Source: a virus (Duplodnaviria; Caudoviricetes). Taken from it: DNA of 64,000 nucleotides. This document shows, one piece after another, positions 6,216-64,000 of the stretch (its first letter is position 1; every line of letters begins with the position of its first letter). Position numbers and translations under genes: made by a program. The notes under the pieces were generated by a model, which did no database searches, was not told the DNA's origin, and saw only the letters and a list, made by a program, of their open reading frames with translations. The stretch is from IMG/VR virus record IMGVR_UViG_3300049595_005065, one strand, 5' to 3'.

Positions 6216-7703
6216 ATGCCGTTTAAGTCTGAAAAGCAGCGGCGTTTTCTGTGGGCCGAGCATCCTGAGATCGCCAAGCGCTGGGCGCACAAGTATCCCG
6301 AGTCCAACAAGGGCCTGCCGATGTACGCCGACAAGAAAGACGACACTGATAAGAAAGCCGCGCTTGATGTTCTGGCCCGCGCCGTGTCGAGCTTTAACCA
6401 GACGCGCGCATTTCCCAATAATGGTGAAATTAACGGCGCAAACGCCAAAAAAGCCAACTCCGGGATGATCTACATCGACGTTCCGCAAGGGGACAAGCCA
6501 ACTTACGCAGGGGAAGATCGCGAGAAGGGTAAGCAGACTGAGGGCGAAAAGCAGGTTGCGCACTGTGACGGCGAAAAGGCCGATCAGGACGCTGTAAGCG
6601 CTGTTTTTGGCAAGCTGGCCGTTGTTTTGGCGCCGAAGTTGCGCGAAATGTGGGAGCAGGAACAAGCGCTGACCGAGGGTCGAGAACCCCTGTTTGTGCC
6701 GGAAAACCTCGGTGTTCGGCGTTATTCCATTCCGAGTCCCGTCGTTCCTCCACCGATGGGCATGGCGCCCCAGGCTCCGGCCCAGGCTGGCATGCAGCCC
6801 ATGGCGCAGCCTGCAAATACTCCCGTGGGCGGCGGCTCTCATCCCCAGCACAATCCAATTCAGGCTTTCGGACCGCTCGGTGCCAAGGGCCAGATCAACG
6901 GCAACGCGGCGTTTGGCCAGAAGAACTCTCCGGACAGCCTGAAGACCTCCAGCCTAAAGATTCTCACGAGCATTGATTTCTCGGGGCTGCCGGACCCCGA
7001 TGACTTGGACCTCGACGAAGACGAGCGCACCAAGAGCGCCGCCAAGCCGTGCTCCTGCGGCTGCGGCGATACGGTGCCGACCTGCAAGTGCTCGAGCGCG
7101 CAGGAGTTCGGCGAGAAGCTGGCTCAGGAACTCGAGCTGAGCCTGCCTGCCCAGGTGGCTGTAATGGCTGCACTGGGCGGCGGCGCAGGTATTCGTCACG
7201 GCGGCCTGGCTGGGCTGACCGGCGGCGGGATCTACGGCGCCATTAATCCAGGCGAGTACGTTGACGAGAAGGGCCAGAAGCAAAAGCGCACCCGGCTCCA
7301 GGGCGCAGCGCAGCACGGCTTCGAGAACGCAGGCAAGCTCGGCCTGATTGGCGGCGGCCTGGGTGCAGCCACGGCGGGTAGCCTGCCGCTCGTGGCTGAG
7401 CTGCTGGGCGACAAGAGCGCAGGCCTGGGAACAGCTTTGGCCCGCGGCACAGCCCGCGGCGTCGAGAACTACAACGAAGACGTGCGCAATGAGAACTCCG
7501 AGCAGCGCGACAACCCAGACTATGCGCCCCAGCAAGAAGTCAGCGACAGCTCGGGCGCGCTGCTGGCGCTGCTCCTGGGCGGCGGTGGTCTGGCCCTGGC
7601 GCACGGCCCCAGCCTGATGGGCAAGATGACCGGCGGCTCCAGGGGTCGACGGACCAAGCGGGCCACCGCGAAAGATATCTTTGACATCGTTCAGGGTGCG
7701 TGA
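6216..7703 (+). CDS. Multi-module glycine-zipper protein (putative internal virion protein)
   Basis: N-terminal MPFKSEKQRRFLWAEHPEIAKRWA phage motif; several K-x-A/S motifs; GGLAG zippers. Confidence 0.85.
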   Translation: MPFKSEKQRRFLWAEHPEIAKRWAHKYPESNKGLPMYADKKDDTDKKAALDVLARAVSSFNQTRAFPNNGEINGANAKKANSGMIYIDVPQGDKPTYAGEDREKGKQTEGEKQVAHCDGEKADQDAVSAVFGKLAVVLAPKLREMWEQEQALTEGREPLFVPENLGVRRYSIPSPVVPPPMGMAPQAPAQAGMQPMAQPANTPVGGGSHPQHNPIQAFGPLGAKGQINGNAAFGQKNSPDSLKTSSLKILTSIDFSGLPDPDDLDLDEDERTKSAAKPCSCGCGDTVPTCKCSSAQEFGEKLAQELELSLPAQVAVMAALGGGAGIRHGGLAGLTGGGIYGAINPGEYVDEKGQKQKRTRLQGAAQHGFENAGKLGLIGGGLGAATAGSLPLVAELLGDKSAGLGTALARGTARGVENYNEDVRNENSEQRDNPDYAPQQEVSDSSGALLALLLGGGGLALAHGPSLMGKMTGGSRGRRTKRATAKDIFDIVQGA

Positions 7704-63023: not shown

Positions 63024-64000
63024 ATGCTCAAGACCACACTAGGCCAGCTGCTTGTCAATCAGGCGCTACCCGAGGACATGCGCAACTATGAGCGTGTCCT
63101 GACCAAGAAGGACATGGGCAAGCTGGCCACCGAACTGGCGCAGAAGCACCCGGATAAGTACCGGGACGTTATGAAGCGCTTGCACGACGCTGGCCGGGAC
63201 GCGGCGTACACTACGAACGGTCTGTCGTTCGGGCTCAAAGATATCAAACCGACGCTGGCCGCCCGGGACATCCAGCAGCGTGTGCAGCGGCAGCTCCGCG
63301 GGATTCTGGCCGACCGGAAACTCGACGACAAGACGCGCTCGCTGGCGATTCTCAAGTTGGCCGCAGGCGCCCAGAGCGAGCTGATCGACAAGGTCTATGA
63401 AGAAGCGCGGGGCGTGGACAATCCCCTGGCGCACCAGGTTGCCGGGTCTGCCGTTGGCAACAAGTTCTCGTTGAACTCGCTCATCGGCGCCGACATGCAG
63501 TACGTCGACCACAAGAACGAGCCGATCCCCATTCCTGTGATGCGCGGCTACGGCCAGGGCCTGCGTCCCGTGGAATACTTTGCGGGTGCCTTCGGCACCC
63601 GCAAGGGCGTGATGGATCTGAAAACAGCCACCGCAGACGCTGGCTTTTTCGGCAAGCAGCTCGCCCAGATGACGCACCGCCTGCTTGTCACCGACGACGA
63701 CGAGCGCGACGAGGAGCGCCTCGCCGCCGCGCACGACCGCGGTTATCCCACCGACGTCGACGACACCGACAACGAGGGCGCCCTGCTCGCCCGGCCGGTG
63801 GGGCCCTACAAGCGAAACACGGTCCTGACTCCCAGGATCCTGAAAGATATCAAAGAGATGGGCATCCAGGACATCCTGGTCCGTAGCCCGCTCGTGGGCG
63901 GCCCAGAAGACGGCGGCGTTTACGCCAAGGACGTCGGTTACCGCGAAAAGGGCCGCCTGCCGCCGATCGGCGACTATGTCGGCGTCGCCGCGGCCCAGGC
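63024..64000 (+). CDS. rpoC: RNA polymerase beta' C-terminal subunit (truncated at window edge, not in ORF track)
   Basis: My translation: MLKTTLGQLL..., bridge helix QGLRPVEYFAGAFGTRKGVMDLKTATADAGFFGKQL, VRSP, GDYVGVAAAQ. Confidence 0.93.
   Translation, partial: MLKTTLGQLLVNQALPEDMRNYERVLTKKDMGKLATELAQKHPDKYRDVMKRLHDAGRDAAYTTNGLSFGLKDIKPTLAARDIQQRVQRQLRGILADRKLDDKTRSLAILKLAAGAQSELIDKVYEEARGVDNPLAHQVAGSAVGNKFSLNSLIGADMQYVDHKNEPIPIPVMRGYGQGLRPVEYFAGAFGTRKGVMDLKTATADAGFFGKQLAQMTHRLLVTDDDERDEERLAAAHDRGYPTDVDDTDNEGALLARPVGPYKRNTVLTPRILKDIKEMGIQDILVRSPLVGGPEDGGVYAKDVGYREKGRLPPIGDYVGVAAAQ

Follow-up and report, generated by a model that had tools for sequence, protein, structure and literature searches.

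A cysteine-free bacterial-type RNA polymerase lacking both beta' zinc sites in an uncultured tailed phage, and its probable carriage in the virion

We examined the RNA polymerase (RNAP) genes in a 64,000-nucleotide stretch of viral DNA, hereafter the window, which spans positions 10995-74994 of the 127,388-bp IMG/VR record IMGVR_UViG_3300049595_005065 (coordinates below are those of the window unless stated otherwise). The encoded enzyme is of the bacterial type, its two chains contain no cysteine in 2,084 amino acids, and both conserved zinc sites of the beta' subunit are gone. From sequence comparison and from the particle proteome of a related phage, it is likely that the cysteine-free RNAP, a sigma factor and a helicase are packed in the capsid, are ejected and start transcription, and that selection drove the loss of zinc and cysteine.

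The first RNAP gene (57673..62049, plus strand, 1458 amino acids) encodes a fusion of beta with the N-terminal part of beta' (beta'N). Pfam recognizes Rpb2_2, Rpb2_3 and Rpb2_6 (PF00562, E = 7e-51, residues 568-908) followed by Rpb1_1 and Rpb1_2, and in BLAST the chain aligns first with E. coli beta 52-1336 and, further along, with beta' 160-540; the beta catalytic barrel region (Rpb2 domain 6) is present, corresponding to beta 420-1336. At residue 1366 the fused chain retains the catalytic GADFDGD, equivalent to the magnesium-binding NADFDGD motif of beta' (PF00623, E = 3e-23). The C-terminal part of beta' (beta'C) is encoded separately (63024..64904, plus strand, 626 amino acids when complete), with 325 residues falling before the end of the window at 64000. 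Those 325 residues match Rpb1_5 (PF04998) at E = 1.9e-6 with 28.0 bits, just below the 28.5 cut-off, and BLAST places the chain on E. coli beta' 755-939 and 1180-1283; the beta' C-terminal module (Rpb1 domain 5) is thus present. An initial annotation, made from the letters of the window, had counted no cysteine in the 1458 residues of the fused chain and the 325 visible residues of beta'C; translation bears this out and extends it to all 626 residues of the latter. Both genes lie between portal and capsid genes, in a neighborhood of portal, capsid and tail genes.

Complete relatives each carry one RNAP set and one sigma-like gene. A Pfam search of these genomes for a second RNAP set returned none, although the same model caught only one of the two sets of phage phiKZ, so a very divergent set could escape it. 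Likewise, no match to the alpha subunit (PF01000) was obtained at E <= 1 in the contig or in three complete relatives by a search that matched 14 of 14 control genomes, and a very divergent alpha could escape it.

The initial annotation also held that neither canonical zinc site of beta' survives, and the alignment agrees. The N-terminal zinc ribbon is deleted: GGLFDETLTGGHGGNRWSKITL replaces about 35 E. coli residues bearing C70, C72, C85 and C88, and the sequence across the deletion reads GGLFDETLTGGHGGNRW. At the second site (Zn2), the columns of E. coli C814, C888, C895 and C898 are occupied by E, G, Y and D. This replacement extends throughout the clade, in which the four columns hold E, D or G; G; Y or W; and D.

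To place these counts against their genomic background, we note that the record has a guanine-plus-cytosine (GC) content of 62.5%, a CheckV completeness of 62% and real genes nearly all on the plus strand. The genomes of complete relatives are 203.9-229 kb long, and two of these have direct terminal repeats; a 208-kb contig holds an identical copy of one open reading frame (ORF) of the record; together these point to a phage genome of about 205 kb. The source is an uncultured tailed phage from a lineage of RNAP-encoding phages, with Salmonella phage Arash and Vibrio phages D69, D148 and D181 among its members. Counting cysteine frequency per ORF had been proposed in the initial annotation as a check. 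Over the translated ORFs of the whole 127-kb contig the mean is 1.38% (552 of 40,066 residues), at which background a chain of 1458 residues would contain no cysteine with a probability of 1.6e-9, and 12 cysteine-free proteins of at least 200 amino acids are found where 1.0 is expected. One complete relative (G001, which was used together with a second, G003, for orthologue comparison) has 16 such proteins versus 1.1 expected.

Conservation of the cysteine-free state across the family shows that it is under selection. Among 120 close homologues of the fused chain (75-97% identity), 108 have no cysteine and four have one. The remaining eight are about 1800 amino acids long, and all of their 11-15 cysteines fall inside an insert of about 345 residues at a conserved RTPE|SGK site, which corresponds to residue 405 of our chain (about position 58885). 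This insert begins with cysteine, contains a LAGLIDADG-like motif and ends in CGN followed by serine, and so resembles an intein, the splicing of which would yield a cysteine-free product; in one such homologue (P0008) Pfam detected no intein domain within the insert, and the assignment comes from the boundary residues and the LAGLIDADG-like motif. In 150 more distant cluster representatives (43-59% identity), most of which contain inserts, the part homologous to our chain has 0.149% cysteine (325 of 217,808 residues) and the inserts 1.9%; 13 of the 18 insert-free representatives have none. Many homologues (P0007, P0008, P0015, P0047 and others) carry one to four large inserts and reach a total length of up to 3350 amino acids. 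We also considered whether long homologues of 1,900-2,150 amino acids might be complete beta-beta' fusions; this was ruled out, since none aligns to beta'C and the extra length consists of inserts. For beta'C itself, all 22 standard-length orthologues, drawn from 26 related loci and reaching down to 51% identity, are free of cysteine.

The same composition is shared by the proteins expected to work with the polymerase. A sigma70-like protein similar to Arash gp10 (95379-96212, beyond the window; 277 amino acids; Sigma70_r3, E = 2e-9) has no cysteine, and neither has an SNF2-type helicase or translocase (11360..13261, plus strand, 633 amino acids; Pfam SNF2-rel_dom and Helicase_C) that is 34% identical to Arash gp217 (472 amino acids, also without cysteine). 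Near the helicase lies a Gly/Ala/Leu-rich protein with many GxxxG stretches (7700..10003, plus strand, 767 amino acids, no cysteine). It belongs to a family of which 19 homologues (33-100% identity) contain no cysteine in 14,034 residues, and in three relatives (P0286-P0288) this family forms the C-terminal half of the SNF2 helicase, as a single cysteine-free chain of 1076-1328 amino acids. In total, this transcription group (both RNAP chains, sigma, the helicase and its 767-residue partner) contains no cysteine in 3,761 residues. When three genomes are compared, the numbers of cysteines are 0, 1 and 0 in the fused RNAP chain and zero throughout in beta'C and sigma, versus 2, 2 and 2 in the capsid protein. 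A 1136-residue, Met-rich protein encoded between the tail genes and the sigma gene (88984-92394, beyond the window; L004:6279-9689) is likewise without cysteine in both of the genomes that have it, the G001 orthologue being 35% identical and 1372 amino acids long. Its position resembles that of Arash Gp4 (1097 amino acids, no cysteine), which ranks second in abundance among the proteins that mass spectrometry detected in Arash virions. Protein Atlas tape-measure clusters matched it below threshold and serve as a lead, not as evidence.

The nearest cultured relatives are Vibrio phages D69, D148 and D181 and phage Arash, whose gp206 matches 98% of the length of the fused chain at 33% identity. 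BLASTP links beta'C to Arash gp216, the helicase to gp217 and sigma to gp10, and connects further proteins of the phage to gp204, gp218, gp222, gp226, gp233-236, gp13 and gp14, so that the virion module (portal, major capsid, tail) is shared. Mass spectrometry of Arash particles found Gp206 to be the top protein, with 128 unique peptides and 3516 spectra; the spectra numbered 1333 for the major capsid protein, 1210 for Gp216, 1148 for the helicase Gp217 (38 peptides) and 467 for the sigma factor Gp10 (PMC10585845). The 45 Arash proteins with at least 9 unique peptides have 0.41% cysteine versus 1.42% in the rest (Mann-Whitney p = 8e-8), and 11 of the 17 cysteine-free Arash proteins of at least 200 amino acids belong to this high-confidence virion set. 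Gp206 has a single cysteine in 1525 residues and the fused chain of Vibrio phage D69 has two in 1527.

The single RNAP and single sigma, the position of the genes between portal and capsid genes, and orthologues that dominate Arash particles make late synthesis, packaging, ejection and immediate transcription the most likely course of events. RNAP, sigma and helicase would be made late and packed into the capsid; ejected with the DNA, they would allow phage transcription to begin without new protein synthesis. Selection would have freed the mature proteins of all cysteines and of both zinc sites, leaving an enzyme independent of thiols and of structural zinc that could survive storage outside the cell, pass the tail and the envelope, probably partly unfolded, and then refold. 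We place good confidence in the packaging of the RNAP machinery in the particle, judging by the Arash analogy, and consider its ejection followed by early transcription to be probable, if somewhat less secure. Avoidance of disulfides in the periplasm is a tentative, rather doubtful candidate for the main cause of the cysteine loss; alternative causes are stability in the particle and refolding without metal once the tail has been passed. The initial annotation had proposed a packaged and injected set of proteins. Its core is supported for RNAP and helicase, and for the sigma-like protein as well, by the abundant Arash virion orthologues Gp206, Gp216, Gp217 and Gp10, while packaging in the present phage, ejection and periplasmic oxidation remain inferred.

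Several observations weigh against this reading. The evidence for packaging comes from Arash, which appears to lie outside the clade of the present phage, and the Arash preparation is not clean: 116 proteins were listed, including ribonucleotide reductase, ligase and primase, and the authors allow for carry-over of abundant enzymes (PMC10585845). The sole RNAP and sole sigma must also serve the rest of the infection cycle. Furthermore, Arash gp216 and the D69 beta'C hold exactly four cysteines, which are the Zn2 ligands, and the virion RNAP (vRNAP) of phiKZ has 16 cysteines in 2614 residues (0.61%), just about twofold depleted relative to the non-virion enzyme (33 of 2850, 1.16%). By these analogies a packaged multisubunit RNAP tolerates both cysteine and zinc, and cysteine depletion is a tendency rather than a requirement. 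Finally, methionine, which can also be oxidized, makes up 3.4% of the cysteine-free set versus 1.7%, an enrichment that argues against general avoidance of oxidation; T7 gp14-16 are likewise rich in methionine.

One could conclude from the first of these points that the RNAP is no virion component at all, that its dominance in Arash is contamination, and that the enzyme lost its cysteines for a reason within the cell, such as thiol-directed or oxidative host defenses, independence of zinc or very high expression, since a single RNAP has to work there all through infection. We regard this as very unlikely. The Gp206 spectra exceed those of the major capsid protein, the number of unique peptides is high, and proteins known to be ejected bear the same cysteine-poor signature. 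The initial annotation had singled out non-virion phage RNAPs as a telling comparison, and those examined carry normal cysteine levels: 12 of 883 residues in T7 gp1 (1.36%), 13 of 673 in N4 RNAPII (1.9%) and the above-mentioned 1.16% in phiKZ. A different explanation accepts packaging and sees in the cysteine loss a general adaptation of virions to long extracellular exposure, through avoidance of irreversible oxidation and cross-linking, rather than a mark of ejection or the periplasm. The Arash capsid, tail-tube and many other structural proteins, which are also free or nearly free of cysteine, are consistent with it, as are the N4 capsid protein gp56 and the T7 scaffold gp9, which have none. 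However, the proteins of the present phage assigned to the capsid and tail class through Arash homology have 54 cysteines in about 5,075 residues by a tally of per-ORF counts, or about 1.06%; Pfam-matched metabolic proteins have about 1.3%. Their counts are conserved in orthologues, several having 7-11 cysteines both in the phage and in its closest complete relative, and three tail-end proteins are very rich in cysteine (40, 29 and 60). The transcription group has none, and the cysteine-free set is therefore a specific subset of the virion-module proteins, which fits cargo better than any particle protein. In T7, too, the ejected gp15 (747 residues) and gp16 (1318 residues) lack cysteine, versus 0.5-1% in shell and tail proteins. 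General virion adaptation is thus improbable as the explanation, and packaging followed by ejection remains the preferred one.

The case is less clear for the orphan ORFs. The initial annotation had listed the helicase and seven ORFs as being, like the RNAP chains, free of cysteine, for a total of about 5,400 residues, which translation upholds; two of the starts it gave, 10034 and 56837, are in the same frames as the ORFs starting at 10004 and 56753. For these seven (7700, 10004, 28841, 31686, 49939, 56753 and 62064), the absence of cysteine might be a by-product of low-complexity composition rich in Ala, Gly and Pro, some might not be genes, and they would then be uninformative about packaging. 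This is possible, though we lean away from it. The orphans contain 13-20% Ala and 10-17% Gly, and PHROG and Pfam searches of orphan ORFs gave no family apart from one tail-protein match at 19460-19996. The putative genes at 10004..10519 (Gly/Ala-rich, 171 amino acids) and 28841..29566 (Ala-rich, 241 amino acids, without a PHROG or Pfam family), both on the plus strand, have no homologue in G001 or G003. For these two and the Pro/Ala/Met-rich ORF at 62064 the absence of cysteine tells less than it does in globular enzymes. The Ala/Gly/Gln/Pro-rich ORF at 31686..34619 (plus strand, 977 amino acids) has an Atlas model with a predicted local distance difference test score (pLDDT) of 0.45, and sub-threshold PT-TG and LPD22 leads that were not used as evidence. 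Against this explanation, the 767- and 977-residue proteins represent conserved families with no cysteine in any member, the latter including six homologues (40-100% identity, 708-1090 amino acids). The 767-residue protein and the ORF at 49939..50970 (plus strand, 343 amino acids, no cysteine) are joined to the helicase in relatives: the latter resembles the C-terminal extension of a G003 helicase, with 31% identity to ORF 181158-183578, in which the helicase occupies residues 28-503. Its G001 orthologue has two cysteines. G003 ORFs at matching positions around the RNAP gene are also without cysteine. Directly upstream of that gene, the Ala/Gly-rich ORF at 56753..57667 (plus strand, 304 amino acids) has a cysteine-free G001 orthologue (46% identity, 419 amino acids) and a cysteine-free G003 ORF in the same position (359 amino acids). 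Between the two RNAP genes, the ORF at 62064..62792 (plus strand, 242 amino acids) has a cysteine-free G001 orthologue (85% identity) and a cysteine-free G003 counterpart in position (266 amino acids); it gave no Pfam or PHROG match and is possibly an accessory subunit of the RNAP. A cysteine-free ORF of 79 amino acids (62782..63021, plus strand) follows it. Inclusion of the orphans in a packaged set, as initially proposed, thus gains from their conserved lack of cysteine and from the helicase fusions of 7700 and 49939, and from nothing further. In relaxed BLAST against Arash the orphans gave nothing significant, and tblastn of the 767-, 977- and 1136-residue proteins against cultured phages gave no match. 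A simple scan of hydropathy lent no support to the idea that the cysteine-free orphans are located in membranes, with one candidate helix in the ORF at 31686 and a weak one in that at 49939.

At the end of the contig, the opposite extreme to the cysteine-free set is reached by three adjacent genes (contig 119816-126350; L005:6317-8902, 8868-9599 and 9603-12851), whose products have 40 cysteines in 861 residues together with collagen repeats, 29 in 243 and 60 in 1082, and which are probably disulfide-rich fiber or receptor-binding proteins. The phage-encoded actin-like protein (41795-42826; Volactin family PF25216, E = 5e-62) and the glycosyltransferase (44907-46370) have 7 and 11 cysteines, as the initial annotation had broadly stated. 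A UDP-galactopyranose mutase adjoins the latter, the two forming a sugar-modification pair (43810-46370). The window further encodes a PhoH-like ATPase (35258-35974) and an M10 metallopeptidase that has a peptidoglycan-binding domain (51849-52658). Between close relatives the stretch from 6216 to 35000 is hypervariable, and for many of its ORFs G001 and G003 contain no homologue. The stretch includes a collagen-repeat protein (13308-15443), a protein with an Mtd_N domain (16198-17487) and the ORF with the tail-protein match mentioned above, and is probably a host-recognition region.

An AT-rich palindrome, WWWGATATCWWW, is present in 24 copies in the window versus 0.01 expected, and in 40 on the contig; examples are located at 1757, 2946, 6144, 7671, 11323, 19413, 24571, 35215, 49960 and 63843. 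Intergenic sequence makes up only about 5% of the contig yet holds 14 of the 40 copies, and 13 lie 20-150 nucleotides upstream of a start codon versus a random mean of 5.3. The palindrome is a candidate for the promoter or operator used by the RNAP-sigma holoenzyme of the phage. A broader proposal, which we offer as speculative, is that the cysteine-free, Met-rich signature marks the whole ejected proteome, amounting to about 9,300 residues on the contig: a holoenzyme (core and sigma) containing neither thiols nor structural zinc, an SNF2 translocase together with its Gly-zipper partner domains, a putative tape measure and the large orphans. The enzyme would then be the first bacterial-type RNAP shown to fold and be active with both conserved zinc sites missing, and the dispersed AT-rich palindrome WWAGATATCTWW would serve it as promoter or operator.

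The zinc sites of beta' commonly count as invariant parts of the structure of cellular-type RNAPs, and a widespread phage clade has replaced both and lost every cysteine. Hundreds of clusters keep this state and provide a natural experiment on the function of the zinc sites. The rule of cysteine suppression is also extended from the single-subunit N4 enzyme to a bacterial-type one, and could become a cheap, sequence-only predictor of injected phage proteins, for which large uncharacterized proteins and the helicase are candidates. Already known were the rule itself for N4-like phages (2002-2024), the lineage of Caudovirales that encode a multi-subunit RNAP (mReC, 2020) and the Arash virion proteome with its orthologous RNAP (2023). 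What is new is that a bacterial-type RNAP has lost all of its cysteine and both zinc sites, that a large clade maintains this state, and that the Arash branch represents an intermediate.

Among known systems, N4 gp50 and the Schitoviridae ejection operon (DEV gp71-73) are alike in having a packaged, ejected RNAP with complete cysteine suppression and cysteine-free partner ejection proteins. As published, and as the initial annotation had stated, gp50 has no cysteine in 3500 residues. Suppression is conserved across the N4-like ejection operon, and passage through a periplasm containing Dsb proteins has been put forward to explain it (PMC11445570, PMC2784036). Cysteine suppression goes unmentioned in a review of ejection proteins. 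However, the N4 vRNAP is a 3500-residue single-subunit enzyme of the T7 type that uses hairpin promoters without sigma and is accompanied by a second, non-virion RNAP, whereas the enzyme described here is a bacterial-type two-barrel polymerase and the only one of its phage. The phiKZ vRNAP (gp80, gp149, gp178 and gp180) is closer in being a head-carried multisubunit enzyme resembling beta and beta' that is linked to a Swi2/Snf2 helicase (PMC7824862). Its virion beta'N, gp180 (L016:27786-29258), has two cysteines and no zinc ribbon, a loss that parallels the one seen here, and the non-virion gp55 (L014:3923-5185) keeps a CxC...CxxC ribbon (C58, C60, C73 and C76). Unlike the present phage, with its fused chain, one RNAP set and sigma-like gene, phiKZ has no sigma, and its subunits are split and come in two paralogous sets, one for the virion and one not. 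In the crAss-like phage phi14:2 the vRNAP gp66, a large two-barrel RNAP found in particles, is nearly free of cysteine (2 in 2180 residues), as are neighboring cargo proteins (1 in 1797 and 0 in 579); it differs in being a single, very divergent chain that cannot be aligned to cellular beta and beta' (PMC7481178).

The present contig is an IMG/VR record of the kind from which the mReC lineage was described in 2020 (Weinheimer and Aylward, PMC7481178), namely uncultured tailed phages, some larger than 200 kb, whose beta and beta' were found with cellular profiles. The text of that paper does not mention virion, sigma or intein, and uses "fused" and "fusion" solely for crAssphage. Arash (OQ632216) and the Vibrio phages D69, D148 and D181 are the most similar in organization: beta is fused to beta'N while beta'C forms a chain of its own, one RNAP set is accompanied by a sigma70-like factor and an SNF2 helicase, and the RNAP genes lie amid portal, capsid and tail genes, with the zinc ribbon deleted and cysteine near zero. 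From these the present phage is set apart by its GC content of 62% and by genes that are nearly all on one strand. Whereas Arash and D69 retain Zn2, whose four ligands are the sole cysteines of their beta'C, the present clade has replaced all four. The sequences thus suggest that the Arash branch lost the zinc ribbon and every dispensable cysteine, and that the present clade has gone one step further, losing Zn2 as well.

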